From the IMG/VR virus record IMGVR_UViG_3300034008_000032: DNA of 64,000 nucleotides. The stretch is one strand, 5' to 3'. The stretch comes from a virus. The notes under the pieces were generated by a model. That model did no database searches. It had not been told where the DNA came from and saw only the letters and a program-made list of their open reading frames with translations. Below, one piece after another: positions 568 to 52,670 of this stretch (position 1 is the first letter of the stretch; every line of letters starts with the position of its first letter). The translations under genes and the position numbers were made by a program.

Positions 568-603
568 GTACCAATAATGGCATGCACGGATGGGTGTGGT
601 CAA
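568..603 (-). promoter_or_regulatory. promoter/operator element (minus strand)
   Basis: TTGACC-acacccatccgtgca-TGC-CATTAT-TGGTAC; same layout as the other copies and close to the 52635 copy. Confidence 0.75.
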
Positions 604-638
604 CGGGGAAATTGCCGGAAATTGTTCTGTGTCAGGGG

Positions 639-674
639 TTGCAGTCGCTGACCAACACATGCCAGAATAGGTAC
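639..674 (+). promoter_or_regulatory. leaderless promoter/operator element
   Basis: TTGCAG-N15-TGC-CAGAAT-AGGTAC, then ATG at 675. Confidence 0.8.
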
Positions 675-1211
675 ATGGACACCACGACCGGCGCACAGAC
701 GCCCACCCAGAAGATCACCGACGCGCAGATGCGTGCCCTGCACGCCATGGTGCAGAAGAACGACCCCGGCCACAACGGCTGGGTCGAGACCCCCAACAGG
801 GGTGTGCTGAACCGGCTGGTAAAGGCAGGCCTCTTGCGCGAGCGCGCCTTCCATGAGCGAGGCCCGTTGTACCGGGTGACTGACGCCGGCCGGGCGGCGC
901 ACGACGCGGTGTACACCGCGGACCGGCTGGCCGCCGAGGCGCAGGCGCGGTCGCGGGAGGCCAAGGCCGCCCGCGACGCAGCGCAGGCGCGGCGCGACGA
1001 CATGGACACCGCAGCGGAACTGCGCACCGAGGACATGGCGGCGGTGCGGGACATGCTGGGTGACGCAGCCCCCTGGTGGACGAAGGGCGGGGCCAAGCCG
1101 CACGACGACTACAGCGGCATCAGCGGCGGCGATTCGGTCGGCCGTATCACCGCCACCGAACTGCGGCGCTACCTCGAGGCTGCGCTGCGGAACGCCGGGG
1201 TGCAGGCATGA
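675..1211 (+). CDS. hypothetical protein, possible N-terminal winged helix
   Basis: Start placed at ATG 675 by the promoter element; ITDAQMRALHAM...VLNRLVKAGLL resembles a wHTH. Confidence 0.7.
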   Translation: MDTTTGAQTPTQKITDAQMRALHAMVQKNDPGHNGWVETPNRGVLNRLVKAGLLRERAFHERGPLYRVTDAGRAAHDAVYTADRLAAEAQARSREAKAARDAAQARRDDMDTAAELRTEDMAAVRDMLGDAAPWWTKGGAKPHDDYSGISGGDSVGRITATELRRYLEAALRNAGVQA

Positions 1212-1387
1212 ACCGGGACTGGACCATGAACACCGGCGAGTGCTGGTGCTATCGCACCTGCCGGGCGTGCAGCCACAGCGGCACCTGGCATGTGCACCCC
1301 GGCGAGCGTTGCCCCGTTCACCCTGACGCGCCGGGCGACTGGTCCGCGGCCGAGCGCGCCGCAGCGTTGTTGGCGGTGAAGGCGTGA
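1208..1387 (+). CDS. small Cys/His-rich hypothetical protein
   Basis: ATGA overlap; CWC..CRAC..H.H...CPVH. Confidence 0.6.
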   Translation: MNRDWTMNTGECWCYRTCRACSHSGTWHVHPGERCPVHPDAPGDWSAAERAAALLAVKA

Positions 1388-1608
1388 GCGCCCGCACCCT
1401 GACGTACCCGGAGCAGCAGGCGTACTGGCTGCTGCGGGCGGCCGGCCCGCAGGCTGCGTCTGAGGTAGCCACCCGCATGGGGTGGCCGATGGGTCCCACC
1501 CTGCGCATCCTGCTGGGGCTGCGCATAGCCGGGCTGGTGCAGGTGGCTGTGCTGCCCACCGCATCCCTGTGGTGGCTGACCCCGCCAGTCCCCGACGAGG
1601 AGGTGTGA
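1384..1608 (+). CDS. winged helix-turn-helix protein
   Basis: ASEVATRMGWPMGPTLRILLGLRIAGLV pattern; GTGA overlaps at both ends. Confidence 0.6.
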   Translation: MSARTLTYPEQQAYWLLRAAGPQAASEVATRMGWPMGPTLRILLGLRIAGLVQVAVLPTASLWWLTPPVPDEEV

Positions 1609-2054
1609 CCGTGGACGCTATGGATCCGGCCGTGCTGGAGGCTATTCGGCGCCGGTACATCCACGCGGTGGTGCCGTACACCGGCAGCGGCGCCACGGAC
1701 AGGTGGCTGAACACTGCGGACCGTGACCGTGGCCAACTACTGCTCGAGGTAGACCGGCTGCGGGCGCTGCTAGACGGTGCGCCGACGCTGACCCTGGAGT
1801 ACCGTGCCGTGTACTCGTTCCCTCCGTCGTACCTGGGCCCCACACCAGACCGCTACAGCCTGGCGCAGGCAACGCCGGACCGGCTGCCGCGCTGCCCGCG
1901 GTCCGAGGAGAACTGGGGGTTCACGTCCGGGGTGCAGTCCCGGGTGGTGGGCGCTTGGGGTCCGCAGTGCACCGGCCGCTGCGAGACCGCCGTGGTGTCC
2001 GACCGGTTCGTCCGGCGCACCGATCCTGACTGCCCACTACACAAGGAGGTTTGA
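1605..2054 (+). CDS. hypothetical protein
   Basis: GAGGAGG SD and GTGA overlap; C-terminal Cys motifs. Confidence 0.6.
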   Translation: MTVDAMDPAVLEAIRRRYIHAVVPYTGSGATDRWLNTADRDRGQLLLEVDRLRALLDGAPTLTLEYRAVYSFPPSYLGPTPDRYSLAQATPDRLPRCPRSEENWGFTSGVQSRVVGAWGPQCTGRCETAVVSDRFVRRTDPDCPLHKEV

Positions 2055-2056
2055 CC

Positions 2057-2293
2057 ATGGGCACCGAGCCTGTGACGCTGGACCGCGTCGAGGAAATCCG
2101 CGAACGCTGGTCCGTGCAGGAGAGCGCACCGGGTGTGGCGCCGTCCCCCACCGAGGCGCAGGACTACCAGGACGTGCACGAACTGCTGGCCATGCTGGAC
2201 TGGGCGGTGGCCCAACTGGCTGAGGTCGAGGGGGACCTGGAAGTCCGCAACGACGAAGTGGCTGCGCTGCGTGTGCAGGCAGGTGTGGGTTGA
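2057..2293 (+). CDS. hypothetical coiled-coil protein
   Basis: AAGGAGG SD; ORF track. Confidence 0.65.
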   Translation: MGTEPVTLDRVEEIRERWSVQESAPGVAPSPTEAQDYQDVHELLAMLDWAVAQLAEVEGDLEVRNDEVAALRVQAGVG

Positions 2294-2502
2294 TGGCGTT
2301 CGCGGTGGTGTTGGCGGTGTGCACGTTGCTGCTGGGCGGCGGCACCGTGTGGTGGCTGGGCCGGCGCGCCAACCAGCAGATTGAGGCGAAGGCGCGTGAG
2401 CGTTTCGACGCCCTGGTGCGGGAGGCGTACCTGGACGCGGCGCCGTCGCAGGAGGCGCTGGACGCGGCCGCTTGCGCGAACCTGGAGAAGACGGCGTGGT
2501 AG
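2293..2502 (+). CDS. small membrane protein
   Basis: N-terminal hydrophobic helix; TGATG coupling. Confidence 0.65.
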   Translation: MAFAVVLAVCTLLLGGGTVWWLGRRANQQIEAKARERFDALVREAYLDAAPSQEALDAAACANLEKTAW

Positions 2503-2642
2503 GTCAGTCAGCCCGCTGCCCGGTGTGTCAGCGCATCATTCGCGCCACCACGCCCGGCGGCAGTGACGGGTCCGTGGCGTGGCTGGTGAAGCATGGGCCG
2601 GTGAAGGCGCGCTGTGCTGGCAGTGGCCGGCCGGTGCGGTGA
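2496..2642 (+). CDS. small zinc-ribbon-like protein (48 aa)
   Basis: Hand-translated MVGQSARCPVCQRII...KHGPVKARCAGSGRPVR; fills the gap and overlaps the next GTG. Confidence 0.5.
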   Translation: MVGQSARCPVCQRIIRATTPGGSDGSVAWLVKHGPVKARCAGSGRPVR

Positions 2643-2884
2643 CCCGCCCGGACAGTCCCGGCGGCTGGGTGCAAACGCTGGCCGCCGAGAAGCAGGCTAT
2701 CGCCCTGGGAATCCTGGACCGCTGCCCACACGAGGGCGTCATGGGTCCGTGCACCCGAGCAGCCCGGCACCCGCTGCCGCATGCTGTGCCGGACCGGCGA
2801 AAAGGTGCCGGATTTGGTCAGATTGTGCCGGATGCTGCCAGCAGCCCCGGTAAGCGCGGCAAGACTGCAAAAAAATCCCGATAA
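2639..2884 (+). CDS. hypothetical protein
   Basis: GTGA overlap; start shortened from track ORF 2579. Confidence 0.5.
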   Translation: MTRPDSPGGWVQTLAAEKQAIALGILDRCPHEGVMGPCTRAARHPLPHAVPDRRKGAGFGQIVPDAASSPGKRGKTAKKSR

Positions 2885-2897
2885 CGGCACGCCCGTA

Positions 2898-2933
2898 TTG
2901 ACACATGCCAAGATAGGCAGATAGGGTGTTCTT
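2898..2933 (+). promoter_or_regulatory. leaderless promoter with operator dyad between -35 and -10
   Basis: TTGACA-caTGCCaagataGGCAga-TAGGGT-gttctt-ATG(2934). Confidence 0.8.
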
Positions 2934-3284
2934 ATGACCACACCAATGACCGAGACCCGCATGGCGGTCAGTCTCGCCCACAGCATCGAGCGGGACCACA
3001 ACCCCCGCGCCTACTGGAAGGGCGCACTGCCCTCTGGTGACGCCCGCAGCCTCCTGGTGGACGTAGCAGACGCCACCGGCGCCAACGGCACCCGCACCTT
3101 CACCGTCACCGTGCACGAGGTGGACCCCTCCGAGGGCAACGACACCGAAGTGCAGCGCCTGGCCGACCTGCTGCTCGAGGGGTTGGAGTCCGCGCTGCCG
3201 GACGTCACAGACCCCATAACTGACCCAGAGATGGTGGCGCGGCACGTCGCCCAGTACATGGTGCTGCGGGGGGTGCACGTATGA
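2934..3284 (+). CDS. hypothetical protein (leaderless)
   Basis: ORF track; ATG 36 nt after TTGACA. Confidence 0.75.
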   Translation: MTTPMTETRMAVSLAHSIERDHNPRAYWKGALPSGDARSLLVDVADATGANGTRTFTVTVHEVDPSEGNDTEVQRLADLLLEGLESALPDVTDPITDPEMVARHVAQYMVLRGVHV

Positions 3285-3580
3285 GCATGGACGCGGACAC
3301 GGCGGTGCGTGTGGCGGACATGCTGGACACGCAACTGATGCGGGTGGCGGACGACACCCTGACGCCGGCGCAGTTAATCAACGCCATGGCGGACTTTGTG
3401 ACCGAGGCCCGCAAGTATTCCGCCCGGCTGCGGGCAGCCCACCAGTCCCCACTGCCCGAGGGTATGGACGAAGTGCTACGGCTGGCCGCATTGATCGAGC
3501 GCGGCCACACTGACACCAACCCCAAGCCGCTGGCTGTCGACCTGGCCCGGCACCTGCTGGACCACGGGGTGCGGCTGTGA
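3281..3580 (+). CDS. hypothetical protein
   Basis: ATGA overlap. Confidence 0.7.
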   Translation: MSMDADTAVRVADMLDTQLMRVADDTLTPAQLINAMADFVTEARKYSARLRAAHQSPLPEGMDEVLRLAALIERGHTDTNPKPLAVDLARHLLDHGVRL

Positions 3581-4122
3581 CCTACAGGATGGGGGACACC
3601 AGCCCAGAGGCTGCGGCGGCGCTGCTGGCCAGCCTGGACCCGGGGGACGTTGGGCGCCGTCCGTGGGTCGCCGAGGTGGTGCGGCTGCGCGCCCTGCTGG
3701 GTAGCCCGTGGGTGCGGGTGGTGAACGGGCCGCACGAGGCCGCCACGCTGCCAGACCGCACCGTGCTGCGGTTCAACGACGGCGACGTGTGCGAACTGGG
3801 CACATACGGTGACCTGCTCGAACGGGAGCGATACCTGCACTACATGGGGCAGCAGACCAGCCCACCGCTGGACGCCGAGTGGCTGCAGTGGCCGGCCACG
3901 GTGTTGTGGAACCCGGACCAGGCCACTAACGGCTGTACCTGCATCCCCCATGACCAGTACGCCGGCGGCGGTCACACCGAGCGTCTGGTCGAGTACGACC
4001 CTGCCTGCCCTGTGCACAGCGAGCACGTGTACAACCCGCGGACCGGCGTTTGGCAGTTCGCTGACCCCGCCAAGAACGCTCGATGGGAGGCGGACCGGGC
4101 ATCGGCCGACGTCCCCTTCTGA
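3577..4122 (+). CDS. hypothetical protein
   Basis: GTGA overlap; C-terminal Cys/His motifs. Confidence 0.7.
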   Translation: MTYRMGDTSPEAAAALLASLDPGDVGRRPWVAEVVRLRALLGSPWVRVVNGPHEAATLPDRTVLRFNDGDVCELGTYGDLLERERYLHYMGQQTSPPLDAEWLQWPATVLWNPDQATNGCTCIPHDQYAGGGHTERLVEYDPACPVHSEHVYNPRTGVWQFADPAKNARWEADRASADVPF

Positions 4123-4157
4123 CCAACCTGACCACCCCAACCCCAACCGGAGGAACT

Positions 4158-4565: not shown

Positions 4566-4575
4566 GGGCACCCCC

Positions 4576-7237: not shown

Positions 7238-7238
7238 C

Positions 7239-7845: not shown

Positions 7846-8063
7846 CCAGGCCCCGCGACGAGCGGCGCCTGCACTCGGTGGTGCTGGTGCTGGCTGTAGG
7901 CCACGTGCTGCTGGCGTCCCTCGCGTTCATAGTGGACCGAGACCGCTACGTGTGGCCGGTGCTGCGCGAGGTGTACCCGTGGGTGTTCGTGGCTGCGTAC
8001 GCCTGGTCGGCACGCGCCAGCAGCAAGGGGGTTGTGGACCCACCTACTCGTGTGCCACAATAG
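7842..8063 (+). CDS. small membrane protein
   Basis: Two hydrophobic segments; GTGA overlap. Confidence 0.55.
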   Translation: MTRPRDERRLHSVVLVLAVGHVLLASLAFIVDRDRYVWPVLREVYPWVFVAAYAWSARASSKGVVDPPTRVPQ

Positions 8064-8067
8064 GTAC
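8032..8067 (+). promoter_or_regulatory. leaderless promoter/operator element
   Basis: TTGTGG-N15-TGC-CACAAT-AGGTAC-ATG(8068). Confidence 0.8.
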
Positions 8068-8481
8068 ATGAACGCATACACCGAGCAGGTCACCATCGGC
8101 ACCCCGCTGCGCGCTCGCACCGAAGAGTTCTACACCGGCATCAAGCGCGGCGACATTGTCTGGGTCATCGCGCACCGCGACGGCGACGGTCTACCGGACC
8201 GGGTCGAGGTCTGCGGCGACAACGACCAGGCCAGCCTGTGCACCAGCCTGGCCGACTTCGAAGAGGTTGCCCGTGACACCCTGACGCACCGCCAGTGGCA
8301 GGCAGGCTCCCGGGTCATGGCGTCGTTGGCCAAGTCGTACCTGGAGCGCGCGTACGCGGCAGCCAACCACCAGTACCAGCCGTCCGACACCGAAGCTCTG
8401 GCATGGCTGCACAAGGCGGCGGACCTGAGGCTGCTGTCCCATCGCCTACACGTGCAGGGCGGCGATGCTGGCCGCTGGTGA
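8068..8481 (+). CDS. hypothetical protein (leaderless, moron-like)
   Basis: Has its own promoter and a downstream terminator. Confidence 0.75.
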   Translation: MNAYTEQVTIGTPLRARTEEFYTGIKRGDIVWVIAHRDGDGLPDRVEVCGDNDQASLCTSLADFEEVARDTLTHRQWQAGSRVMASLAKSYLERAYAAANHQYQPSDTEALAWLHKAADLRLLSHRLHVQGGDAGRW

Positions 8482-8498
8482 CCTGACCCTCTACCCCA

Positions 8499-8949: not shown

Positions 8950-10563
8950 ATGGCGCTGGACCTGCAGCAGAAGCCCCTCATGGGGCACACGGTGCCGCGC
9001 ATATTCACACCGCCGTTGCGGGACGTAGACGACCCCGCCCACCCCGAGTACACGCACGGGTGGGCGTGCATCTGGTTCGCGGAGCATGTGCTGGGGCTGA
9101 CCCTGGACCCGTGGCAGAAGTGGCTGCTGCGGCACGCCCTCGAGGTCCGCCCTGACGGCTCGTTCCGCTTCCGCAACGTGGTGGTTCTGGTGGCCCGCCA
9201 GAACGGCAAGTCCACCCTGTCGCAGGTGCTGGCCCTCTACTTCCTGTACGCGCTGGGCACCCGGCTGGTGCTGGGCACAGCGCAAGACCTGGACACCGCC
9301 ACCGAGGTGTGGCAGGGCGCCGTGGACATGGTGATGGAGGAGGACGAGGACGAGTCCCCTGTCCGTCCCGAGTTGCGGGCGATGGTGGACCGCATCGTCA
9401 TGGTGAATGGGCAGAAGTCCCTGAACCTGATCACGAAGGCCCGCTACAAGGTGAAGGCGGCCAGCCGCCGCAGCGGGCGCGGTCTGTCCGGGGACCTGGT
9501 GATTTTGGACGAGTTGCGGGAGCATCAGACCTTCGATGCGTGGTCTGCCCTGACGGGCACCACCAACGCCCGCCCCAACGCGCAAATTTGGGCGCTGTCC
9601 AACGCCGGCGACGTCACCAGTGTGGTGCTGCGTTTCCTGCGCATGACCGCCCACGCTGCACTGGGGGACCCGGACGGCATCTGTGCTGCGGCGGACCCGG
9701 CCGCGCTGCTGAAGGCCGCCAACGAATCGGTGGACCTGGACGGCGACGACCTGGACGTCGAGGACGTGCCCGATGACACCCTGGGGCTGTTTGAGTGGTC
9801 AGCGCCGCCTGGCTGCCATGTGAAGGACCGCAAGGGGTGGGCGTACGCCAACCCCAGCCTGGGCTACGGCCGGGTGACCGAGCGCACCCTGCAGTCCAAG
9901 TCCAACGAGCCCGAGTGGGTGTGGCGCACAGAGGGGTTGTGTCAGTGGGCGGACGGCACCCTGGACGGCTTCTTTCCTGCCGGCGCCTGGGATGAGTGCC
10001 GGGACCGTGACAGCCGGCTGGCCGATGACAGCCCGGTGGTGCTGACCCTGGACGTGTCCTGGGACCGCAGCGCAGCCCATGTGGGCATTGTGGGGTTGCG
10101 CGACGACGGGCTGACGCACGTGGAGGTGTTGGCGTCATCTGGGCGGGGTGGGCTGCCCATGGGTACGGACTGGGTGTTGCCGTGGCTGCAGTCCCCCGAG
10201 CGCAGCCAGCGGGTGCGGACCGCTGGGATAGTGGCGCAGACCCGCGGTGCGCCGGTGTCGTCCATGGTGGAGGGGTTGGAGGCTGCAGGGCTGCGGGTCA
10301 TTCCGTGGGGCGGCGGTGACCTGGGCGCAGCAACCGGCTTCCTGTACGACCTGGTGCGGGAGGGGAAGGTGCGGCACCGCGGGCAGCCAGTGCTGGACGT
10401 GGCCGCAGCCACAGCCCTACCGAAGCCGATGGGTGACTCGTATGTGGTGGACCGCAAGAAGTCCCCGAATGACGCAGCCCCACTGGTGGGCATGGTGGGC
10501 GGCTGCTGGTTCCTGAGCGCCGAAGTGGCATCTGCGTATGATGTCCTTGACAGCGTGATGTGA
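8950..10563 (+). CDS. terL: terminase large subunit
   Basis: Walker A VARQNGKS, Walker B LVILDELREH, C-terminal nuclease LDVSWDRS. Confidence 0.95.
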   Translation: MALDLQQKPLMGHTVPRIFTPPLRDVDDPAHPEYTHGWACIWFAEHVLGLTLDPWQKWLLRHALEVRPDGSFRFRNVVVLVARQNGKSTLSQVLALYFLYALGTRLVLGTAQDLDTATEVWQGAVDMVMEEDEDESPVRPELRAMVDRIVMVNGQKSLNLITKARYKVKAASRRSGRGLSGDLVILDELREHQTFDAWSALTGTTNARPNAQIWALSNAGDVTSVVLRFLRMTAHAALGDPDGICAAADPAALLKAANESVDLDGDDLDVEDVPDDTLGLFEWSAPPGCHVKDRKGWAYANPSLGYGRVTERTLQSKSNEPEWVWRTEGLCQWADGTLDGFFPAGAWDECRDRDSRLADDSPVVLTLDVSWDRSAAHVGIVGLRDDGLTHVEVLASSGRGGLPMGTDWVLPWLQSPERSQRVRTAGIVAQTRGAPVSSMVEGLEAAGLRVIPWGGGDLGAATGFLYDLVREGKVRHRGQPVLDVAAATALPKPMGDSYVVDRKKSPNDAAPLVGMVGGCWFLSAEVASAYDVLDSVM

Positions 10564-26153: not shown

Positions 26154-28514
26154 ATGGCGCTTGCGCGCCACGCCAGCACCCCGGCAGCGGTCAGCAGCAC
26201 CTACGCCACCACGCTGGTAACGGCACAGTTCACCCCGCCGGTCGGGTCGCTGCTCATGTGTGTGTCCGGCTACGACACGCAGAACACCAACCGCATCGAG
26301 ACCGCCACCACTGACGCGGGCAGCACCACCGCCTGGCAGCGGGTGCAGATGCTGGCGGTGACTGGCGGCATGGTCGCCATCGATTGGGCGCGGGTGACGT
26401 CATCGGTGCCCACCCGGGTGCGGTCAACGTACGACGGCGCGCAGACGCGCTGCGACATGTTCGTGCTGGTCATCACCGGGCAGGCAGCCAACCCACTCGG
26501 CGCGTCGGCTGCGGTGGTGTGCGGGACACAGCAGACCATCAACTGGAACGCCACGCAGGCTGGGTCGAAACTGGTAGCGGTCTACGAGGCATGGGACGCC
26601 GGCCCCATACCGACGTCGTCGGCTATGACCGTACTCGCATCGCATGACCCCGACTCGCTGCCTGAGAGGTACACGTATGCGGCGTGGCTGCAGACCGGGA
26701 CAACACCCACCAGCGGCGGCGCAAACACGGTCACGTTCGCGGGCACAACGGCTGGTGCGCCGTTGGCGTGGGTCGAGGTGGTGCCCAGCACCACAGACTC
26801 GTACGCGGGGTCCGGCGGGCTGTCAGGGGCCGGCGCACTGCAGGGCGTGCGGCGGGTGCCTGGGGCTGGTGGCACGTCCGGCGCCGGCACCGTGTCTGGG
26901 GCGGGTGTGCAGGCGCTGCCCGCGCAGGGTGTGGTGTCCGGGGCTGGTGCGCTGGCTGGCGGTGTCAGGACGCCGTCGCTGCAGACGATGCGTGGGCTGT
27001 CCGGCGTCGGCACCCTGGTGGGCTACGGCGGGTCAACGCTGGAGCAGTACGTGTACCGGCCAGCACCTCCCATTGACCGCACCCATCGGGTGGCGTGGCG
27101 CTACATCGCCCAGAACATGCTCACCAAGCAGTTCCTGAACTGGGAGGTGCCGCTGACCACAGATGGACCCGAGCATGCGCTGTCCGGGCCAGGGTCACTG
27201 AAGGGGACTGTCACCCCAGAAATTGGGCAGATGCTGGACGCAAACACCGGCGAGCCGATTCTGCAGGAGTGGCAGACAGCCATTTACGCCGAGGCGGACG
27301 GGCAAATCAGGTGGGGTGGGCTGGTCGTCAGGTCCGGCTTCTCTGGGGCGGCGTGGGAGTTGGAATGCGCAGGATTCACCACCTACCCGCACGGCATGCC
27401 GTACACCGGCCCGTACTGGGCGCGCATCAACTACGACCCCATCCAAATCTTCTACGCCATCTGGCAGCACCTGCAGACGCAGCCCGACGGGAACATCGGC
27501 ATGGAGTATGTGCTGCCGAACGACTGCCCTGTGCGGGTGGGGACTCCGGCTGCGGGCGGCTACCACGAGTACCAGTTCGGGGGCGCATGGTACAACGCAG
27601 CCACCGCCCCGGGGCCCATCTACAATGCTGCCGTGTCGGCGCTGGCGCTGCCTATGACCGCCACGCAGACCAACCTCACGGTGCGGGCGTTGCAGAACTT
27701 CGGCAAGCCGCCGCTGCCGTTCACGGTCCGCATCGGCTCTGAGGACCTGTCCGTGACCGCCCGCTCTGGGCTGAAGTTCACGGTGGTCCGCGGGCTGGGT
27801 GCTACCAACCCGGCCGCGCACGCGGCCGGCACCGAAGTGAACTACACCGGCACACCAGTGCGGGACGTGGACCCCATCGAGGCCGAGCCGTATGTTCTGG
27901 CGTGGTGGGAGACCACAGACTGCGGACAGGAAATTGACAAACTGGCGCAGGAAACCCCGTTCGATTACAGCGAGGAGCACTGGTGGGACGGGGCGACCAT
28001 CCGGCATCGGGTGCGCGTGGACTACCCGCGCTTGGGGCGGCGCCGTACAGACCTGGCGTTCATCCAAGGGGACAACATCACCAGCGTGGTGCCGGTCACT
28101 CGTGACGGGGACGCGTTCGCCAACACCGTGCTGGGCATCGGCAAGGGAGAGGGCGCGCAGTCACTGCGCAGCGAGGTCGCGCACCGCGACGGGCGGGTCC
28201 GCCGGGTGGCGGTGTACACAGACAAGGCGGCCGGCACCAGCGCCCGCCTGACCTCCCTCACTCGCAGCGAATGGGGGCGGCGGCAACTACTGCCCGAAAT
28301 CTCCAGCATTGACGTGATGGACCACCCGCACGCCCGGATAGGCTCATGGAACCTGGGGGACGACATCCTGGTGCGCGCTGACCTGCCGTGGATTGGCTGG
28401 ACCGAGGTGTGGTGCCGCATCGTGGGTTGGCAGCAGCAGGGCGAGGCCAAGGCCACGCTGACGCTGCGGCGCTCGGACTCCTTCTCCTACGGACAGGCGG
28501 CGCAGACCACATGA
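26154..28514 (+). CDS. baseplate hub/Tal-like protein with an N-terminal beta-rich domain and Gly repeats
   Basis: LSGPGSLKGTV, IRWGGLV, RRRTDLAFIQGDNI, ANTVLGIGKGEG, HARIGSWNLGDDI. Confidence 0.75.
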   Translation: MALARHASTPAAVSSTYATTLVTAQFTPPVGSLLMCVSGYDTQNTNRIETATTDAGSTTAWQRVQMLAVTGGMVAIDWARVTSSVPTRVRSTYDGAQTRCDMFVLVITGQAANPLGASAAVVCGTQQTINWNATQAGSKLVAVYEAWDAGPIPTSSAMTVLASHDPDSLPERYTYAAWLQTGTTPTSGGANTVTFAGTTAGAPLAWVEVVPSTTDSYAGSGGLSGAGALQGVRRVPGAGGTSGAGTVSGAGVQALPAQGVVSGAGALAGGVRTPSLQTMRGLSGVGTLVGYGGSTLEQYVYRPAPPIDRTHRVAWRYIAQNMLTKQFLNWEVPLTTDGPEHALSGPGSLKGTVTPEIGQMLDANTGEPILQEWQTAIYAEADGQIRWGGLVVRSGFSGAAWELECAGFTTYPHGMPYTGPYWARINYDPIQIFYAIWQHLQTQPDGNIGMEYVLPNDCPVRVGTPAAGGYHEYQFGGAWYNAATAPGPIYNAAVSALALPMTATQTNLTVRALQNFGKPPLPFTVRIGSEDLSVTARSGLKFTVVRGLGATNPAAHAAGTEVNYTGTPVRDVDPIEAEPYVLAWWETTDCGQEIDKLAQETPFDYSEEHWWDGATIRHRVRVDYPRLGRRRTDLAFIQGDNITSVVPVTRDGDAFANTVLGIGKGEGAQSLRSEVAHRDGRVRRVAVYTDKAAGTSARLTSLTRSEWGRRQLLPEISSIDVMDHPHARIGSWNLGDDILVRADLPWIGWTEVWCRIVGWQQQGEAKATLTLRRSDSFSYGQAAQTT

Positions 28515-34751: not shown

Positions 34752-35006
34752 GTGGCTGCGGCTGCGGACGTGCTGCACCTGGCGTCGCTGATTGGCCGGA
34801 CTGTGACCGTGACCCGGTATGCCACCGACGAAATCGGTAACAGCATCTATCCGTGGCAGCCGGTGGAGGTGGGTAGCGGGGTGCTGGCGTCTGTGGCTGG
34901 TACCCGCAACGCTGAGGGCGCAGAGACTGTGACGCTGACGTGGGCTGACGGCGGCGTCTACGAGATGACGGACAACATCGGGGCCCTGTCCTTCCGCGTG
35001 GAATAA
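34752..35006 (+). CDS. hypothetical protein
   Basis: ORF track; ends just before the promoter. Confidence 0.6.
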   Translation: MAAAADVLHLASLIGRTVTVTRYATDEIGNSIYPWQPVEVGSGVLASVAGTRNAEGAETVTLTWADGGVYEMTDNIGALSFRVE

Positions 35007-35019
35007 CCCACAAGGGTAC

Positions 35020-35055
35020 TTGCGTGACCGGCTGGCGGCATGCCACAATAGACAC
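35020..35055 (+). promoter_or_regulatory. leaderless promoter/operator element
   Basis: TTGCGT-N15-TGC-CACAAT-AGACAC-ATG(35056). Confidence 0.8.
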
Positions 35056-35517
35056 ATGACCACCGCTACCGCCCCCGCCGAAGTTACCGCCCGCTTCGTC
35101 AAGCCCCGGCTCTGCAGCCGCTGCCGCGGCGAGGGGCTGGTGTCCTCTCGGGTGGTGTACGCCGGCGGGCCTGGCGGCTGCTTCAAGTGCGACGGCTGGG
35201 GCTGGGTCGAGGGCGACCGGGCCACCATCGAAGCAGCGAAGGCCCGCACCGCAGCGATGACCGGCATGATCCGCGACAGCATCTCAGCCCTGGAGGCGGC
35301 CGGTCTGACCCCCCGCTACTCCACCGACCTGTGCTACGGCATCGACCACCTGGCCACTAACGCCCCCGCCCGGTACGAGTCGGCGCTGCAGTCATACCTG
35401 GCCGGTCACCCCGGCCTGGCCCGTGCGCTGTGGGCGTACACCGCCGAAGCCGGCTTCGTGCACTACGGCACCCGCAACCTGACTGCGGCAGAGGCCCTGG
35501 CCCTGCTGACCGACTGA
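35056..35517 (+). CDS. DnaJ-type zinc-finger protein (leaderless)
   Basis: CSRCRGEG...CFKCDGWG. Confidence 0.7.
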   Translation: MTTATAPAEVTARFVKPRLCSRCRGEGLVSSRVVYAGGPGGCFKCDGWGWVEGDRATIEAAKARTAAMTGMIRDSISALEAAGLTPRYSTDLCYGIDHLATNAPARYESALQSYLAGHPGLARALWAYTAEAGFVHYGTRNLTAAEALALLTD

Positions 35518-35531
35518 GAGAGGCGCACGCC

Positions 35532-35702
35532 ATGGAAGAGACTTGGCTAGGACAGATTCTGCGGGACGGGCAGTGGGTGGACTACGCCCGTGGCACCGAG
35601 GACGCGGCGCGGACCTGGCAGGCGGGCAGCCCTACGACCCGCCGGGTGGTGGACTGGATCGACAAAGATCGGGTGCTGGTGCATCCGTCTAACCCACGTT
35701 GA
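35532..35702 (+). CDS. hypothetical protein
   Basis: GAGAGG SD. Confidence 0.6.
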   Translation: MEETWLGQILRDGQWVDYARGTEDAARTWQAGSPTTRRVVDWIDKDRVLVHPSNPR

Positions 35703-35734
35703 CCATGCCACATGCGGCATGCCATAATTGGCGT
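35699..35734 (+). promoter_or_regulatory. leaderless promoter/operator of the XRE gene
   Basis: TTGACC-atgccacatgcggca-TGC-CATAAT-TGGCGT-ATG(35735). Confidence 0.8.
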
Positions 35735-35980
35735 ATGTCTACTTCAACCATCACCAATCTGGCGGATCTGGTACGCACCAGACGCCAAGCGAAGGGTCTG
35801 TCCATCCGTGAACTCGGGCAGCAGACCGGCACCTCCATGTCGTCCATGAATCGTCTGGAGTTGCAGAACATCGTGCCCCTGGCGCCGTCCATCTTCCGCA
35901 TCGCGGACGTGCTGGACATCGACCTGGAGACGCTGAAGACGCTCGTGTTGCAGTGCGCCAACGCCGGCAAGACCGGCTGA
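35735..35980 (+). CDS. XRE-family HTH transcriptional regulator
   Basis: LVRTRRQAKGLSIRELGQQTGTSMSSMNRLE...RIADVLDI. Confidence 0.88.
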   Translation: MSTSTITNLADLVRTRRQAKGLSIRELGQQTGTSMSSMNRLELQNIVPLAPSIFRIADVLDIDLETLKTLVLQCANAGKTG

Positions 35981-35997: not shown

Positions 35998-36014
35998 CCT
36001 GCCAAAATTGACAC
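35998..36014 (+). promoter_or_regulatory. operator/-10 element without a TTG -35
   Basis: TGC-CAAAAT-TGACAC, then a short leader with AAGGAAGGGGG SD. Confidence 0.55.
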
Positions 36015-42571: not shown

Positions 42572-42921
42572 GGGCTGCGGAGGCGTGGGCGCTGCAGGCG
42601 GCTGCCATGGACGAGGACACCGAACTGCTGCCGAAGGTGCTGGACCTGGCCAAGACGCTGCGGTGGACGCTGCGCTTCCACGACTACGTACCGCTGCGGA
42701 ACGGGCGCGGATTCCTAGACCTGCTCATGCTGCACCCCGGCCGGGGGCTGGTGCTGGCCGCTGAGTTGAAGTCGCACCGGGGCCGGGTGACCCCCGAGCA
42801 GAACCTGTGGCTGGACGGCTGGCGCGCGGTCGCTGCTACCGCACCCAACGTGCTGGTGCACGTGTGGCGCCCCCTGGACTTGTTGGACGGAACCATCGCC
42901 AAGGTACTTGCGCGCACCTGA
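42568..42921 (+). CDS. VRR-NUC-like nuclease / resolvase
   Basis: GFLDLLML...AELKSHRGRVTPEQNLWL. Confidence 0.8.
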   Translation: MRAAEAWALQAAAMDEDTELLPKVLDLAKTLRWTLRFHDYVPLRNGRGFLDLLMLHPGRGLVLAAELKSHRGRVTPEQNLWLDGWRAVAATAPNVLVHVWRPLDLLDGTIAKVLART

Positions 42922-42943
42922 CCTGACATGCCAGAATAGACAC
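42908..42943 (+). promoter_or_regulatory. leaderless promoter/operator element
   Basis: TTGCGC-N15-TGC-CAGAAT-AGACAC-ATG(42944). Confidence 0.8.
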
Positions 42944-43210
42944 ATGACCACCACACAGTACCCCGTCCGCCGCATTGCCGGCACCGACTGCAGCGCCCGC
43001 CTGAGCCGGCGCAGCAACGACGGCAGCATCCGTGACTACGCAATCCTTGACGCCACAGGCGCCGTTATTGGCCTCGTGTCTTGGCACACCGCCCGGGTGG
43101 GCCGGTCCGCCGGCTACCACGAAGGCCGTGGCTGCTACAGCCACGACGTGCGGTGCTTCCGTAACCTGGCCGAGGCCGCCCACTACTTCGCAGGCCAGGT
43201 GACCGCGTGA
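42944..43210 (+). CDS. hypothetical protein (leaderless)
   Basis: Start defined by the promoter element. Confidence 0.7.
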   Translation: MTTTQYPVRRIAGTDCSARLSRRSNDGSIRDYAILDATGAVIGLVSWHTARVGRSAGYHEGRGCYSHDVRCFRNLAEAAHYFAGQVTA

Positions 43211-43533: not shown

Positions 43534-43935
43534 TCACGGCAGCGCGCGATACACCAGCACGTCCATGCGCAGATCGGTGTTGTTGTAGCGAGTGACTTGG
43601 TACGGCACGCAGGCGTTGGCGCTCCGCAGGTTGGTGTACCCGTAGCCGCGGGTGCCGAACTTTGACGGCGAGTTGACCCGGTACGAGGCGTACCCCACCG
43701 GGGACTGCTGGCCCGGGTAGAGGACGCGGTGTGGCGCATCGTAGGTGGTGCAGTTGGTGTCGCTCCACACGTTGATGGCGTAGATGGACTGGGTGCTGTT
43801 GTAGATGACGTTGACGTTGCAGGTGGACGATGGGCAGGGCCCTGCGTGGGCGGGGGTGACCGTGGCCAGGGTCAGCGGGACTGCGAGGGCTACTGCGGCG
43901 GCCATGCTGGCGGCGGCTCGGCGGGGTGATGTCAT
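43534..43935 (-). CDS. secreted Cys-containing protein
   Basis: Signal peptide (RR, hydrophobic core, AHA cleavage site); 4 Cys; beta-rich mature part; no credible + strand gene here. Confidence 0.75.
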   Translation of the reverse strand: MTSPRRAAASMAAAVALAVPLTLATVTPAHAGPCPSSTCNVNVIYNSTQSIYAINVWSDTNCTTYDAPHRVLYPGQQSPVGYASYRVNSPSKFGTRGYGYTNLRSANACVPYQVTRYNNTDLRMDVLVYRALP

Positions 43936-43961: not shown

Positions 43962-43997
43962 TTGTGTCACCCCTGACAGGTATGCCACTATAGGTAC
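43962..43997 (+). promoter_or_regulatory. leaderless promoter/operator element
   Basis: TTGTGT-N15-TGC-CACTAT-AGGTAC-ATG(43998). Confidence 0.8.
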
Positions 43998-44813
43998 ATG
44001 ACCACCGCAGACACCCAAACCGACCCCACCGTCTACGTGGACCCGTGCCCTGGCATGAAGGGCACCGACACCATCGTCCGCACCTGCGGCAACTGCGGCG
44101 GTGACGGCGTCGTGCACTTCGGCCGCGTCGTCCTCGACGGCTACGTGCACGGAGAGCGCACCCAAGGACGCGTCTGCTTCGACTGCGACGGCAGCGGCAA
44201 GAACACCGTCAAGGTGTCCAGCCTGCGGGCCACCGCACACCGGCACGTCAAGCAGGCTGTGGCAGCCCGGGAGGCAGAAGTGCTGGCCGACATCAGCCGC
44301 GGCGCGTGGCGGCACAGCAGCCCCGATCTGGCGGCTGCGCTGGACCGGCTGAAGGTCATCGAGGACAGCAGCGGCTTCTACTGGTCGCTGTACCACCACG
44401 TCGGCAAGCACGGTGGGCTGACCGACAAGCAGGGCGAGGCGATGCTGCAGACTGTGGCTGACCACGACGCACGGGAGGCTGCGAAGGCTGCCGAACTGGC
44501 CGCGCAGTCCCCGGTGGTGACCGGCCGGCAGACCGTGACCGGCGAAGTGCTGGCCCGCAAGACGGTGGACGGCTACGCATACGGCAGCCTCGAGGTGAAA
44601 CTGCTGGTGCGCGACGACCGCGGCTTCAAGGTGTACGGCACCTGCCCCAAGTCTCTGCTGGGGGACTGGGTGGACGGCGAACTGGTGGGCAACGTCCAGA
44701 AGGGCGATCATGTCACCTTCGTGGCCACCCTCGAGGCCAGCCGTGACGACGAGGCGTTCGGCTTCTTCCGCCGGCCGACCGCGGCCAACATTGTGGCGGG
44801 GGCGCTGCTGTGA
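43998..44813 (+). CDS. DnaJ-type Zn finger plus OB-fold-like protein (leaderless)
   Basis: CGNCGGDG...CFDCDGSG; C-terminal VTGEVLARK...KVYGT...VTFVAT. Confidence 0.7.
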   Translation: MTTADTQTDPTVYVDPCPGMKGTDTIVRTCGNCGGDGVVHFGRVVLDGYVHGERTQGRVCFDCDGSGKNTVKVSSLRATAHRHVKQAVAAREAEVLADISRGAWRHSSPDLAAALDRLKVIEDSSGFYWSLYHHVGKHGGLTDKQGEAMLQTVADHDAREAAKAAELAAQSPVVTGRQTVTGEVLARKTVDGYAYGSLEVKLLVRDDRGFKVYGTCPKSLLGDWVDGELVGNVQKGDHVTFVATLEASRDDEAFGFFRRPTAANIVAGALL

Positions 44814-45169: not shown

Positions 45170-45411
45170 TGGACCGCTGCACCTACTGTGGCCGGCGCCG
45201 GCAGTGCTGGGCTATCCAACGGAAGGGCGGAGGCAACTACCGCCGCGCCGGCCGGGGGTATTGGGGACGCATCTGCGGTGAGTGTGTGCTGTCCCTGCTG
45301 GACGGCAACGAGCACCGCGACGGGTCACAGACCGTGGACCGCTACAACCTGGGCAGTCTGCGCCGCATCGCCCGCCTACTTGTGCCAACAGAGGAAGGTG
45401 TGCCAAACTAG
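45169..45411 (+). CDS. zinc-finger-like hypothetical protein
   Basis: CTYC...ICGEC; TGATG coupling. Confidence 0.65.
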   Translation: MDRCTYCGRRRQCWAIQRKGGGNYRRAGRGYWGRICGECVLSLLDGNEHRDGSQTVDRYNLGSLRRIARLLVPTEEGVPN

Positions 45412-45415
45412 GCAC
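45380..45415 (+). promoter_or_regulatory. leaderless promoter/operator element
   Basis: TTGTGC-N15-TGC-CAAACT-AGGCAC-ATG(45416); perfect dyad GTGCC-N6-GGCAC. Confidence 0.78.
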
Positions 45416-45787
45416 ATGAACACCGCAGCCCCGAGTCAAGAGCCGCGCCGGATGGAGATGGCGCGCATGACGCCCAGCCAGAAGCGGATGACTGTGCAGT
45501 CCCTGATGGGGCGCCGGTCCCTGGTCTACGTGAAGGTGGCCAAGCCAACACCGCTGACGGTGGCGTTCGACGTGGAGGTAATCGGGGTGGGTGTGTCCCT
45601 GCTGGGTGACACCGACAAGGCTGTGGACCTGACCTGCCGCATGTACGGCGAGGACAACCGCTGGGCAACGGTCCCGCTGGCGTCCGTGGTGGGCATGACC
45701 CCGCTGCCGTGGCCCGTCACTGACCCCCGCCACCCGGACTACGTGGCCCCGAAAACTGTCTACACCGCACTACCCCCCCGCCGCTGA
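45416..45787 (+). CDS. hypothetical protein (leaderless)
   Basis: Start defined by the promoter element. Confidence 0.7.
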   Translation: MNTAAPSQEPRRMEMARMTPSQKRMTVQSLMGRRSLVYVKVAKPTPLTVAFDVEVIGVGVSLLGDTDKAVDLTCRMYGEDNRWATVPLASVVGMTPLPWPVTDPRHPDYVAPKTVYTALPPRR

Positions 45788-45830
45788 CTTAGCGGCTCTG
45801 GGATTCCAACCCCCACAGAAAGAAGGCACC

Positions 45831-49521: not shown

Positions 49522-49574
49522 CCAGACCCTGACCCTCGCAGCACCACTAGTTGACCGACTAAGCCTAGGAAGTA

Positions 49575-49982
49575 GTGCCAGTGAAAACTATACCAACATC
49601 GGCCACGCACCGTCCAGTGGAACGCCAGCCTGTCTCACACGCGCTGCGCTGGGCGACATTGTGCCGCTACAACTTCTCGTGCCGCTACTGTGGACTACCC
49701 GCCGGTGTGGTGGTGCTGCAGATCGAGCACGTCATCCCCGTGGCCCACGGCGGCACCAGTGACCCGTGGAACCTCGTTCCTGCCTGCGCCGAATGCAACC
49801 GAGGCAAGGGCGTCACGATGCCGCCGGCAGACCTGCTGCGGGCGGTCTGGGCTGAGTACATGGCGCACCCGGCACCGTACGTCCGGCAGTGCCTGGTCTG
49901 CCTCGAGCCGACCTTGTCTGACCCCGCCTGCCCGCCGCTGTGCGAGGACTGCTGCGGACGCATCATGGCGGTGCAGGCATGA
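49575..49982 (+). CDS. HNH endonuclease
   Basis: CRYCG...IEHVIPVAHGG...NLVPACAECNRGKG. Confidence 0.88.
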   Translation: MPVKTIPTSATHRPVERQPVSHALRWATLCRYNFSCRYCGLPAGVVVLQIEHVIPVAHGGTSDPWNLVPACAECNRGKGVTMPPADLLRAVWAEYMAHPAPYVRQCLVCLEPTLSDPACPPLCEDCCGRIMAVQA

Positions 49983-50857
49983 GCGGCACACTGCCCGAGG
50001 TCACTCAGGAGCGCGAGGGATGGTCAAAGGTCCCTCACTGGTTGCTGCGCGAGGTCAACCCAACGTGCGTGGTTGTGTACGCCCACATGGCGTCGTACGC
50101 CTGGCTGCCTGACGGCGCCCGGCCGCCGGTGTCACGCATAGCCAAGGAGTTAGACATGTCCGTACGAACCGTTCAGCGGGCACTGGGTGACCTGGCAGAC
50201 CACGGCGCAATCGAGGTAACCGAGCGGTGGTCTGAGGTTGGCCAGCAGATGCCCAGCCGATACCACCTACGGCTGACAAAGAAGGAGGGTGCCAAATCTG
50301 ACACCCTCCAAGGAACTACGTCGAACCACCAGGGTGACAAATCTGACACCCTCCCGCTTGGGGGTGACACGGATGACACCCCCGGGGGTGACACCAGTGT
50401 CACCGGGGGGGTGACACTGGTGTCACCCGAACAAGAACAACAAGAACAAGACCCAAGAAAGATGGCCCGCGAAGCGGCCCGTGCTCGTTCGGATGCGCTT
50501 TTCGCTGAGTTCTGGACGGTGTACCCGCGGCACGAAAAGAAGCAGTTGGCCAAGCGAAAGTGGGACACGCTGGTGCTGACCAAGGGCGTGGACCCGCTGG
50601 ACATACTGGCCGGCGCACGGGTGTATGCCCGCGCCAACGCCGCCCAGAAGCCCGAGTACATCGCCCACCCCACGTCATGGCTAAACGCCGGCCGCTGGGA
50701 GGACGAGGTGGTCACTAAGGGCAGCCCGGCGCCCACCCCGCCGCCTGCGCTGCCCGTGGTGCTGAACGACAGCCGCGAGCCTGACTGGATCACAGCAGCA
50801 CCGCAGCCCCGTCAGCCCACACCCCCTGTCCCGTCGAACGTCCGGAGCATTCGGTGA
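49979..50857 (+). CDS. replication initiator (HTH, lambda O/RepA-like)
   Basis: N-terminal wHTH IAKELDMSVRTVQRAL; C-terminal FAEFWTVYPR...HPTSWLNAGRWEDE; internal iterons; DnaB downstream. Confidence 0.85.
   Translation: MSGTLPEVTQEREGWSKVPHWLLREVNPTCVVVYAHMASYAWLPDGARPPVSRIAKELDMSVRTVQRALGDLADHGAIEVTERWSEVGQQMPSRYHLRLTKKEGAKSDTLQGTTSNHQGDKSDTLPLGGDTDDTPGGDTSVTGGVTLVSPEQEQQEQDPRKMAREAARARSDALFAEFWTVYPRHEKKQLAKRKWDTLVLTKGVDPLDILAGARVYARANAAQKPEYIAHPTSWLNAGRWEDEVVTKGSPAPTPPPALPVVLNDSREPDWITAAPQPRQPTPPVPSNVRSIR
50287..50428. repeat. five dyad iterons (probable replication origin)
   Basis: GGGTGNCA-N4-TGNCACC(C) at about 50287, 50332, 50362, 50386 and 50409; A-rich tract follows (50430-50460). 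Confidence 0.75.
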
Positions 50858-51102
50858 TGACAGATACCGCGTTTGTCCTGGTGACGCTGCTGTTTTGCTG
50901 GCATGTTGCGGCATGGATTGTGCTGGTGTGCTGCGAGAGCGTCCGCCTGCTGCCTTTGCCGCCGCGGTGGCCGCTGCTGTACACGGTGGTGGTGTGGCTG
51001 CTGGCCCCTGCGGCTGCGCTGGCTCTGCTGCCGGGGTTTGTGCTGCTGCGGCTGCTGCTGCCCACCTGGCGTGACGTTGACGCCTACGAGGTGGAGTCGT
51101 GA
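50857..51102 (+). CDS. membrane protein
   Basis: Two hydrophobic helices. Confidence 0.6.
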   Translation: MTDTAFVLVTLLFCWHVAAWIVLVCCESVRLLPLPPRWPLLYTVVVWLLAPAAALALLPGFVLLRLLLPTWRDVDAYEVES

Positions 51103-52631
51103 GCGCGCTACCTGTAGGTCATGAGCAGCCGCTGCGGCGCCGTCCGCGGGCTATCACCCCGGACATGGTGCCGTACGGCGACGACGGCCCCGAGGACTAC
51201 CAGCCGGTGGACGTGGTGGTGGTGGAGGATGAGCCGGTGGTGGTCGCGCCCCGCCCTGACGATGTGGTGGTCGAGGACGACGGCGCGGTGGACGCGGTGG
51301 CGATGCTGTCCGGGCCGGCTACCGGCCCCAACGACCTGTGGTGGGAGCGGGCGGTCATAGCCAGCGTCTTGCAGGGCTACCAGGACGTGGCTGGGCTGGC
51401 GCGGGTGGTCACCCCGCAGGACTTCTACCAGCCCATGCACGAGGAAATCTGGCAGACCATTGTGGACCTGTGGGTGGACGGGGTGACCCCGACCGTCCTC
51501 ATGGTGATGGACCGCATGGGCATGGCCGCGCACCGGCTGCCGCGGGGCCCCATCTACCTGTCAGACCTCGCCTCCTCTGTGGATGTGCGTCCGGCGCAGG
51601 CAGCGGACTACGCAGAGCGGGTGCGGGACTGCAGCATCAAGCGGCAAATCCGGGATATGGGCATTCGGGCGATGCAGTTGGTGGAGAACGCGGACTACAA
51701 GGGCTACGAGATGCTGGCCCGGCTGCAGGGGTGGTTTGATCGGGTGCAAGACCGTCAGACCACCGGCGCGTCCGATATCACCAGCGCCTTCGAGAAGGTC
51801 ATCGACATCGCAGAGAACGGGCAGACGCTGGGCATTGACAGCCCATGGCCGGACCTGGACGAACTGCTGGGCGGTGCGTTCCCGGGCCAACTGATTGTGC
51901 TGGGCGCCCGCCCCGGTGTCGGCAAATCCATCTTCGGGGAGAATTGGGCTACGCACACCGCCCGGCAGCCCGGCAACGAGGTGCTGTTCTGCAGCATGGA
52001 AATGTCGGACGCCGAGTTGACGATGCGGACCATGGCGCACACTGCCGGGGTGAACCTGACCCGGCTGCGGACCGGCCGGGACGCCCTCACCGAGTCAGAT
52101 TGGCAGCGCATCCGTGACGCGTCCGCCACCGTGACTGGAGCGCACATCACGTACGTGGACGAGGCCACACAGACCATCACCAGCATCACCATGGCCGCCC
52201 GGCAGGCGCACCAGCGTGCCCGCCGCAACGGCCGCCGGCTGGCCCTCATTGTGGTGGACTACGTGGGGCTCATCACCGCCAGCAACTCCCGCCACAACGC
52301 CCGCGAGACCATCAACGAGGCCACCCGCGGGCTGAAGAAACTGGCGAAGGAGTTGGACTGCGCAGTGCTGCTGCTGGCGCAGTTGAACCGGCAGGCGTCC
52401 GGCCGGGCGAACCCGCAGCCAGTGCTGACTGACCTGAAGGAGTCCGGCAGCCTGGAGCAGGACGCGGACGTGGTGCTGCTGCTGCACGAGGTGGAAACCG
52501 AGGACGGCGACCGTGTCATCAAGACCGGCGAGGTGCTGTGCATCGTCCCCAAGTCCCGCAACGGCCCCACCGGGGTGCGGTCATTCGACAAGTGGGGCGC
52601 CTACGCCAGTCTGAGAACTCGCGGCGCCTGA
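51099..52631 (+). CDS. dnaB: replicative DNA helicase
   Basis: GARPGVGKS, FCSMEMS, IVVDYVGLI, LAQLNR, DLKESGSLEQDADVV. Confidence 0.95.
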   Translation: MSALPVGHEQPLRRRPRAITPDMVPYGDDGPEDYQPVDVVVVEDEPVVVAPRPDDVVVEDDGAVDAVAMLSGPATGPNDLWWERAVIASVLQGYQDVAGLARVVTPQDFYQPMHEEIWQTIVDLWVDGVTPTVLMVMDRMGMAAHRLPRGPIYLSDLASSVDVRPAQAADYAERVRDCSIKRQIRDMGIRAMQLVENADYKGYEMLARLQGWFDRVQDRQTTGASDITSAFEKVIDIAENGQTLGIDSPWPDLDELLGGAFPGQLIVLGARPGVGKSIFGENWATHTARQPGNEVLFCSMEMSDAELTMRTMAHTAGVNLTRLRTGRDALTESDWQRIRDASATVTGAHITYVDEATQTITSITMAARQAHQRARRNGRRLALIVVDYVGLITASNSRHNARETINEATRGLKKLAKELDCAVLLLAQLNRQASGRANPQPVLTDLKESGSLEQDADVVLLLHEVETEDGDRVIKTGEVLCIVPKSRNGPTGVRSFDKWGAYASLRTRGA

Positions 52632-52634
52632 CTG

Positions 52635-52670
52635 TTGACCACACCCATGCTGGCATGCCACAATTGGTAC
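52635..52670 (+). promoter_or_regulatory. leaderless promoter/operator element
   Basis: TTGACC-N15-TGC-CACAAT-TGGTAC-ATG(52671). Confidence 0.8.

Follow-up and report, generated by a model that had tools for sequence, protein, structure and literature searches.

A multi-copy family of putative leaderless promoters and a candidate operator for a small helix-turn-helix protein in an uncultured biocrust phage

A family of short promoter-like elements recurs in IMGVR_UViG_3300034008_000032, a viral DNA of 64,000 nucleotides (the window, meaning this whole stretch). The elements resemble host-type promoters that yield leaderless mRNAs, and an imperfect dyad overlapping their -10 hexamer may be the operator of a small helix-turn-helix (HTH) protein encoded by the same phage. 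Dispersed promoters and operators have parallels in several groups of phages. The early promoters of phiC31 reportedly have conserved inverted repeat (CIR) operators that are bound by the c repressor. The likeness lies in an actinophage with similar promoters across the early region, each with an inverted repeat read by one repressor. phiC31 differs in being temperate, in its large repressor, in early promoters that are unlike SigA promoters and in 17-bp CIRs that lie near and not inside the -10 hexamer, and leaderless starts are not a hallmark of it. Stoperators offer another parallel, since dozens of short dispersed sites, oriented with transcription, are read by one phage protein. They are asymmetric and 13 bp long, lie mostly within or between genes and block elongation rather than acting as promoters, and the phages that carry them are temperate and have an integrase. 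In the phage described here, by contrast, every copy is a promoter at a gene start, none lies in the body of an operon and no integrase domain was found in the gene tables. In L5 and L1, stoperators are described as multiple asymmetric operators of mycobacteriophage repressors (PMC1934351).

Cluster O mycobacteriophages (the Corndog group) have SigA-like promoters, some of them leaderless, and a 17-bp dyad repeat that occurs more than 30 times (PMC4351075). They share with the present phage divergent promoter pairs in AT-richer intergenic regions and a multi-copy dyad proposed as the site of a regulator, but their promoters number 8-9 and their dyad, TGTTCGG-N3-CCGAACA, is separate from these, perfectly symmetric and often within genes (PMC4351075). 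Transcripts of the middle and late genes of the lytic Thermus phage phiYS40 are mostly leaderless (Sevostyanova 2007 via PMC3594737). The host of phiYS40 belongs to another phylum, its promoter class lacks a -35 element and marks middle and late genes, and the phage shifts the host levels of IF2 and IF3 (PMC3594737); nothing of that kind is detectable here.

The Cro-operator arrangement of the 434 and lambda type is similar in its small XRE-HTH dimer (predicted here), in a dyad of about 14 bp overlapping the -10 hexamer (weak in most copies here) and in autoregulation (proposed here), and a homologue of the HTH protein holds the Cro position in a temperate relative, L107. Lambdoid phages, however, have six operators at two promoters, against up to 26 promoters here that mostly combine one good and one poor half-site, and unlike in those phages no CI partner or integrase was seen. 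The promoter-early stem-loop cassettes of the T4 type join a terminator hairpin to an early promoter and are proposed to swap small genes; here clear hairpins are present upstream of 3-4 of the 26 copies, with no excess of stability overall, and swapped first genes were found in one relative. From Cluster O, as from the other known systems, the present phage differs by its 26 promoters in 91 kb, by an imperfect dyad that is fused with the -10 hexamer and discriminator of leaderless promoters, and by a C at -12 together with conserved positions +4 to +8.

Census and anatomy of the promoter family

The window represents about 70% of the genome, of about 91.5 kb and assembled as a circle, of an uncultured biocrust phage, since identical proteins are found on contigs of 91,472 to 91,628 bp from four biocrust metagenome assemblies that differ in their start points on one circle. 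The 27,480 bp outside the window were taken from a JGI contig (L083) and numbered 64001-91480 after the window. The G+C content of the window is 68%, its genes are almost all on the plus strand, and the three minus-strand gene blocks of the genome all lie beyond it. Among the homologues of the terminase at 55-65% identity are some with the labels Pedococcus and Mycobacteriales, and for this reason the host is probably an actinobacterium. The phage is apparently lytic. No cultured phage was close to it by DNA and none had the motif.

A pattern search matched exactly the nine places that the sequence-only reading had given for canonical copies, 603(-), 639, 8032, 35020, 35699, 42908, 43962, 45380 and 52635. 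The pattern TTGNNN-N15-TGCCANNNT has nine matches in the window where 0.43 were expected, a number reached in 0 of 100 shuffles, and the 15-nt core TGCCANNATWGRYRY also has nine, with 0.06 expected. Both variants named by that reading, at 2898 and 36000, are present, the latter as a box without a -35 element. Scanning the window with a position weight matrix (PWM) added a twelfth copy at 413(-), weak and doubtful, with GTG at +1. Fourteen further copies lie in the 27.5 kb outside the window and bring the family to 26 members genome-wide. The proposed regulon had been put at about 10 cassettes, too few since the window covers no more than 70% of the genome; by the whole-genome census it has about 26. 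Exact-motif scans of viral and genome collections gave single matches at chance level only (64 in 596 Gb).

All 26 copies sit at the 5' ends of genes and are co-oriented with the gene behind, nine of them on the minus strand in minus-strand blocks, and three divergent promoter pairs are found among them. None is located within a gene body, and each heads a cassette of small genes, as had been read from the window; the genes behind the copies are mostly without known function. Seven copies fall within 5 kb between 76 and 81 kb, almost one per small gene, while the 27-kb structural block is free of copies save for the one at 8053, which heads the block. About 26 transcription units would start from near-identical promoters, a familiar phage design in an unusually dense form. 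The start types are:

ATG at +1: 20 of the 26 copies
GTG at +1: 1 copy (413-, doubtful)
ACG at +1: 1 copy (78045-), in one assembly seen
leadered or variant: 4 copies (582-, 36000, 75113 and 2906)

The copies in the window and the genes that belong with them are as follows (ORF, open reading frame; arm pairs refer to the dyad treated below):

396..434, minus strand: doubtful weak copy (413-), TAGCCA-N15-TGC-CACGAT-GGGTGC-GTG; PWM score 16.4, 2/5 arm pairs, poor coding support for the ORF
565..603, minus strand: family promoter (the 603- copy, box 582-), leftward half of a divergent pair, TTGACC-N15-TGC-CATTAT-TGGTAC, then GTC; leadered, with a leader of about 70 nt and GAAAGG before a 31-aa ORF at 432-527(-) that is also called by Prodigal
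616..640, plus strand: upstream element CCGGAAATTGTTCTGTG at about -59 to -40, common to three out-of-window family promoters
639..677, plus strand: family promoter, rightward half of the divergent pair, TTGCAG-N15-TGC-CAGAAT-AGGTAC-ATG
675-1211, plus strand: 178-aa gene behind the 639 promoter, with weak winged-helix matches; Prodigal start 675
2898..2936, plus strand: variant in which the box TGCCAAGATAGGCA (2906-2919) occupies the spacer of a canonical leaderless promoter, TTGACA-18-TAGGGT-6-ATG, and is uncoupled from the -10 hexamer
8032..8070, plus strand: family promoter preceding a 137-aa gene, then TerS (8554), TerL (8950; Terminase_6) and the structural operon including the portal gene
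35020..35058, plus strand: family promoter of the AGACAC subtype, heading 153-aa and 56-aa genes in the block 34752-35702
35699..35737, plus strand: family promoter of the XRE-HTH gene, box TGCCA-TAAT-TGGCG, 4/5 arm pairs
35735..35980, plus strand: gene of an 81-aa XRE/Cro-type HTH protein (HTH_31, 3.6e-8), the candidate regulator
36000..36014, plus strand: box TGCCAAAATTGACAC directly past the stop of the HTH gene, no -35 element, 4/5 arm pairs; followed by a 31-nt leader with a Shine-Dalgarno sequence and by 138-aa, SSAP and SNF2-helicase genes
42908..42946, plus strand: family promoter of the AGACAC subtype, heading an 88-aa gene
43962..44000, plus strand: family promoter heading a 271-aa gene (phrog_4265), divergent from the minus-strand gene 43534-43905
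45380..45418, plus strand: family promoter with GTGCC-AAACTA-GGCAC, the best dyad in the window, heading a 123-aa gene
52635..52673, plus strand: family promoter 4 nt past the DnaB stop, heading an 82-aa gene and about 15 small genes

The common layout is TTG, an 18-bp spacer, TGC-CANAAT, a 6-nt discriminator and then ATG. Conservation was counted position by position over the 20 leaderless copies. T-15, G-14, C-13, C-12, A-11, T-7 and the start codon (A+1, T+2, G+3) are invariant, and T-36, T-35, G-34, A-9, A-8, G-5, A-2, C-1, A+4 and A+7 are nearly so; within the -35 element T-36 is found in 16, T-35 in 19 and G-34 in 15. The spacer is 17 bp in three copies, and six of the 26 have a poor -35 element. 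The TGn extension, A-11 and T-7 occur in all 26, as in extended -10 promoters of primary sigma factors. A -10 hexamer beginning with C instead of the usual T had been pointed out from the window; it holds in 26 of 26 copies and departs from the TANNNT standard. A C at -27 (for example window positions 648, 8041 and 35029) is invariant in the 20 leaderless copies though the remaining spacer varies, and it is not kept in the relative L100. The variability of the spacer apart from C-27 implies that the copies are held by selection and are not recent duplicates.

An ATG placed exactly 36 nt past the TTG had been claimed for nine copies and is found in eight of the nine canonical ones and in the 2898 variant; the copy at 603(-) has GTC. 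ATG or GTG follows T-7 by exactly 7 nt in 21 of the 26 copies. The promoter itself fills the 22 nt upstream and leaves the leaderless family genes no room for a Shine-Dalgarno sequence, while non-family genes often have AGGAGG-like sites. The family uses 20 ATG and 1 GTG as start codons, against 69 ATG, 56 GTG and 3 TTG in the other genes (ATG 54%), and independent gene calls begin at the family ATGs. The A/C-rich codons noticed after the ATG proved to be a strongly conserved A[A/C]CAC at +4 to +8 that sets the family genes apart: the start A(A/C)C-AC, with AC at +7/+8, is present in 16 of 19 of them and in 15 of 128 others (p = 2e-10). The leadered copies, too, retain a start rich in A and C.

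With this geometry, the lack of a Shine-Dalgarno sequence, ATG in 20 of 21 starts and independent gene calls at these ATGs, the family very probably consists of host sigma-A-type extended -10 promoters that give leaderless mRNAs. We infer the sigma factor and the transcription start sites from the sequence. The host RNA polymerase with its primary sigma factor (SigA-type) would read TTG at -36 to -34, the 18-bp spacer, T-15/G-14 and CANAAT with A-11 and T-7. Transcription would start on the A of the ATG, 7 nt past T-7, and the mRNA would have no leader and hence be translated without a Shine-Dalgarno sequence.

The dyad and the XRE-HTH protein

The proposal that is preferred here adds an operator to this promoter. 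The 14-bp imperfect dyad over -15 to -2, TGCCA-N4-(T/A)GG(T/C)A with its centre at -8.5, would be the operator of a dimer of the 81-aa XRE/Cro-like protein (35735-35980). This protein, whose gene stands behind a family promoter with a dyad among the best, would repress that gene and, while accumulating, would damp the other family promoters with graded affinity. To the proposal as a whole, a standard family of SigA-read leaderless promoters that also carries the dyad operator of the HTH dimer, we give slightly better than even credence. Autoregulation of the HTH gene through the dyad is the more probable part, whereas action of the protein on most of the family could equally well prove right or wrong. 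We infer that the protein binds, and that it does so as a repressor, from the observations that follow.

The XRE-HTH gene is the only regulator recognisable by Pfam, and the copies at 35699 and 36000 flank it. The best dyads, with 4 to 5 of 5 arm pairs, are found in the atypical copies (582-, 36000, 75113 and 2906) and in the HTH promoter. For the 81-aa protein a symmetric homodimer was predicted, joined through residues 47-75 in its C-terminal half; the prediction scored 0.63, the best control 0.01, and a score of this level was reached by 21 of 30 solved homodimers and by 0 of 23 monomers.

Searches of IMG/VR and of JGI metagenomes with the terminase, DnaB and 271-aa genes yielded just two useful relatives. 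HTH homologues came from an exhaustive HMMER search; a word-index search returned only the query protein. A contig of 30.7 kb (L100/L103/L104) is syntenic to 6.6-38.7 kb of the window with 45-81% protein identity and has three promoters of the same design (TGTYA-WWAT-TGAYAC-ATG), each with the ATG directly after it. Two are ahead of the terminase operon, with the boxes TGTTAATATTGATAC and TGTCATAATTGATAC, and the third, with the box TGTCATAATTGACAC, is ahead of the orthologous HTH gene. In the phage L105 four copies were found, with ATGAACACA starts. No such promoter family was present in terminase relatives at a greater distance (L101, L102) or in relatives by the 271-aa gene (L085-L097), and the design therefore belongs to a small lineage. 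The start ATGAACAC is conserved across phages ahead of unrelated genes, which suggests that it acts in the initiation of transcription or in leaderless translation. The temperate relative L107 has, at 9915-10000, the HTH homologue in Cro position; a 127-aa gene and an integrase gene are divergent from it, and the leaderless promoter of the homologue is of a TACTAT type, with a palindrome TTGAC-AA-GTCAA over the -35 element.

At the promoters of the HTH genes, the complementary runs about the centre -8.5 are 4 in the window, 5 in L104, 5 in the more distant L108 and 2 in L105. The dyads of L104 (TGTCA-TAAT-TGACA) and L108 (GGCAA-CA-TTGCC) are perfect and share this centre although their arms differ; by chance, a run of at least 5 has a probability of 0.004 per promoter. 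All 26 copies here have C at position -13, where 5 of the 7 copies in the relatives have T (Fisher 9e-5); at position -4, G is found in 20 of the 26 copies here and A in all 7 of the relatives (Fisher 4e-4). These values overstate the support because copies within a genome are not independent. The two positions are symmetric and change together between the phages, C/G here and T/A in the relatives. The recognition helix reads SMSSMNRLE here and HVSTVIRLE in the relative. No copy combines A-4 with T-3, a pairing that would disrupt both inner pairs of the dyad (Fisher 0.002, again with non-independent copies).

Several observations weigh against an operator that is read throughout the family. 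The sequence-only reading had described the dyad as a property of the element, perfect near 45400. It is perfect there only (45401, in the N6 register): 16 of the 26 copies match 3/5 arm pairs, 8 match 4/5, 1 matches 5/5 and 413(-) matches 2/5. The consensus right arm is GGTA and not GGCA, and the dyad is weak in the 16 copies with 3/5. The Fisher values given above treat copies within a genome as independent. L105 has a recognition helix of the L104 type, yet its boxes mix TGCCA and TGTCA left arms, and its own HTH promoter matches only 3/5 arm pairs. The C at -12 and the TG are common to the HTH-gene promoter and three orthologue promoters even where the arms differ, and may stem from a preference of the host polymerase instead of an operator. 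In this phage and in the relative the box is also present at the terminase-operon promoter, so that one repressor alone cannot separate early from late genes and a simple early shut-off is a misfit. Additional TGCCA/TGGCA half-sites show no enrichment near the promoters. Conservation of +4 to +8 (A[A/C]CAC) extends from phage to phage, and this stretch resembles a transcription or translation signal rather than an operator. Most of the small genes are without annotation, so another protein could read the box. The sequencing runs that hold the phage sequence are biocrust DNA runs only, with no RNA run among them.

The earlier claim of one regulator acting through an operator from -10 to +1 is thus met from both sides: the dyads at the HTH promoters, the joint change of -13 and -4, the uncoupled box at 2898 and the predicted dimer speak for it, and the weak dyad of the family, the mixed arms of L105, the box of the late operon and the signal at +4 to +8 speak against it. 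A wider version is tentative and, in our judgement, rather doubtful. According to it one Cro-like dimer would be a single timing device over about 26 leaderless promoters, the symmetry of the right arm would set the order of their shut-down, and promoter, operator and start codon (with ATGAACAC) would form a portable junction for the exchange of accessory genes in this lineage of phages.

Alternative readings of the repeats

The family may instead be promoters and nothing more, that is strong host-SigA promoters tuned for leaderless expression without a common regulator; this is a serious possibility, although it falls short of even likelihood. C-13, C-12, the WGGYAC discriminator and A[A/C]CAC at +4 to +8 would then serve polymerase binding, start choice, escape and 70S loading, and the HTH protein, if it binds at all, would control just its own promoter and the adjacent 36000 site. 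The poor consensus dyad (3/5 in 16 of 26 copies) fits this, as do the -12 C with TG retained at the HTH gene and three orthologue promoters though the arms differ, the ATGAACAC start kept across phages before unrelated genes with its family-specific AC at +7/+8, the A/C-rich start of the leadered copies and the membership of the late-operon promoter in the family. Single look-alike sites also stand before ATG in unrelated actinobacterial genomes. The early promoters of T4, which hold far more information than host promoters, are a precedent. So are the Cluster O mycobacteriophages with 8-9 SigA-like promoters, some leaderless (PMC4351075). The joint change of the symmetric positions -13 and -4 between phages is not predicted by polymerase contacts, however, and the absence of A-4/T-3, the box uncoupled from the -10 hexamer at 2898 and the perfect dyads with the same centre at orthologous HTH promoters also favour the operator. 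Far less probable, indeed very improbable, is a class defined by a phage sigma factor or by a factor that modifies or appropriates the polymerase, like MotA/AsiA of T4 or gp28 of SPO1. Such a factor would explain C-12/C-13 and C-27: the non-canonical C-12 is present in 26 of 26 copies, C-27, in 20 of 20 leaderless copies, is not required by a standard promoter, and most genes of the phage are without annotation. No sigma factor, Sigma70 or RNA polymerase domain was found in any gene table or domain scan, however, and the TTG of the -35 element, the 18-bp spacer, the TG extension, A-11 and T-7 are signals of a primary sigma factor. Moreover, the earliest genes have to be transcribed by the host enzyme in its unmodified form, and in every divergent region the first genes have family promoters; nor is C-27 retained in the relative. 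A sigma-54 reading of TGGCA on the opposite strand was rejected as it has no TTGC partner; to our knowledge, actinobacteria are without sigma-54.

The repeats had also been thought to serve as recombination points for the exchange of cassettes, and the genes behind them were compared with those of the syntenic relative. Immediately after the terminase-proximal promoters the two phages have unrelated genes, while the flanking genes are 46-61% identical. The block 34752-35702, with three small genes and its own family promoter, is present here and absent in the relative (contig 26656-26815), a small gene at 82144-82536 has moved and lies between the HTH and Rad52-like genes in the relative, and terminator-like hairpins are found directly upstream of 3-4 of the 26 copies. 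This anecdotal support comes from one comparison only. The edges of the indels do not both coincide with repeats, the shared core of about 25 bp is short for homologous exchange, the upstream hairpins are on average no more stable than the background, and contigs from other samples are the same phage without mosaics. That the repeats are chiefly recombination points, with promoter and start codon as a portable junction for swaps of small genes between phages, is unlikely, and such a role would come second to the promoter function and would not replace it.

Genome context and significance

A second conserved element, CCGGAAWTTGTTCYGTG, is located at about -59 to -40 of four family promoters (window 616-640, 68266-, 70230- and 81307+), three of which belong to divergent pairs. 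It might act as an UP-like element or be bound by another regulator. The copy at 78045(-) in L083 is otherwise perfect and has ACG in place of ATG before an ORF of 87 codons; strain variation, inactivation of the start or an error in the single assembly seen could account for this. Also in L083, an uncalled ORF of 53 aa at 76094-76252(-), Cys-rich and zinc-ribbon-like, starts at the ATG of the copy 76267(-).

The region from 8.5 to 34.5 kb contains structural, tail and lysis genes, with terminase, portal, protease, capsid and tape measure. The region from 35 to 57 kb contains the XRE-HTH gene, genes for a Rad52-like annealing protein, an SNF2 helicase, two DNA methylases, a replication initiator and DnaB, and many small genes. 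There are no tRNA genes in the window. An inverted repeat, GGAGGGTG-N10-CACCCTCC, is found at 50281-50312 within the replication-initiator gene (49940-50857) and may be an origin-related structure.

On the preferred reading, the 26 natural promoter variants could be used to probe what determines where leaderless promoters of actinobacteria start and how strong they are, the tolerance of or preference for C at -12 and the role of +4 to +8. The module is small and portable and could become an expression or repression part for high-GC hosts. If the preferred reading is true, one compact module, composed of a host-type promoter, a built-in operator and a leaderless start, organises a 91-kb genome, and in the accessory regions about one transcription unit per 1-2 kb would answer to a single small protein.

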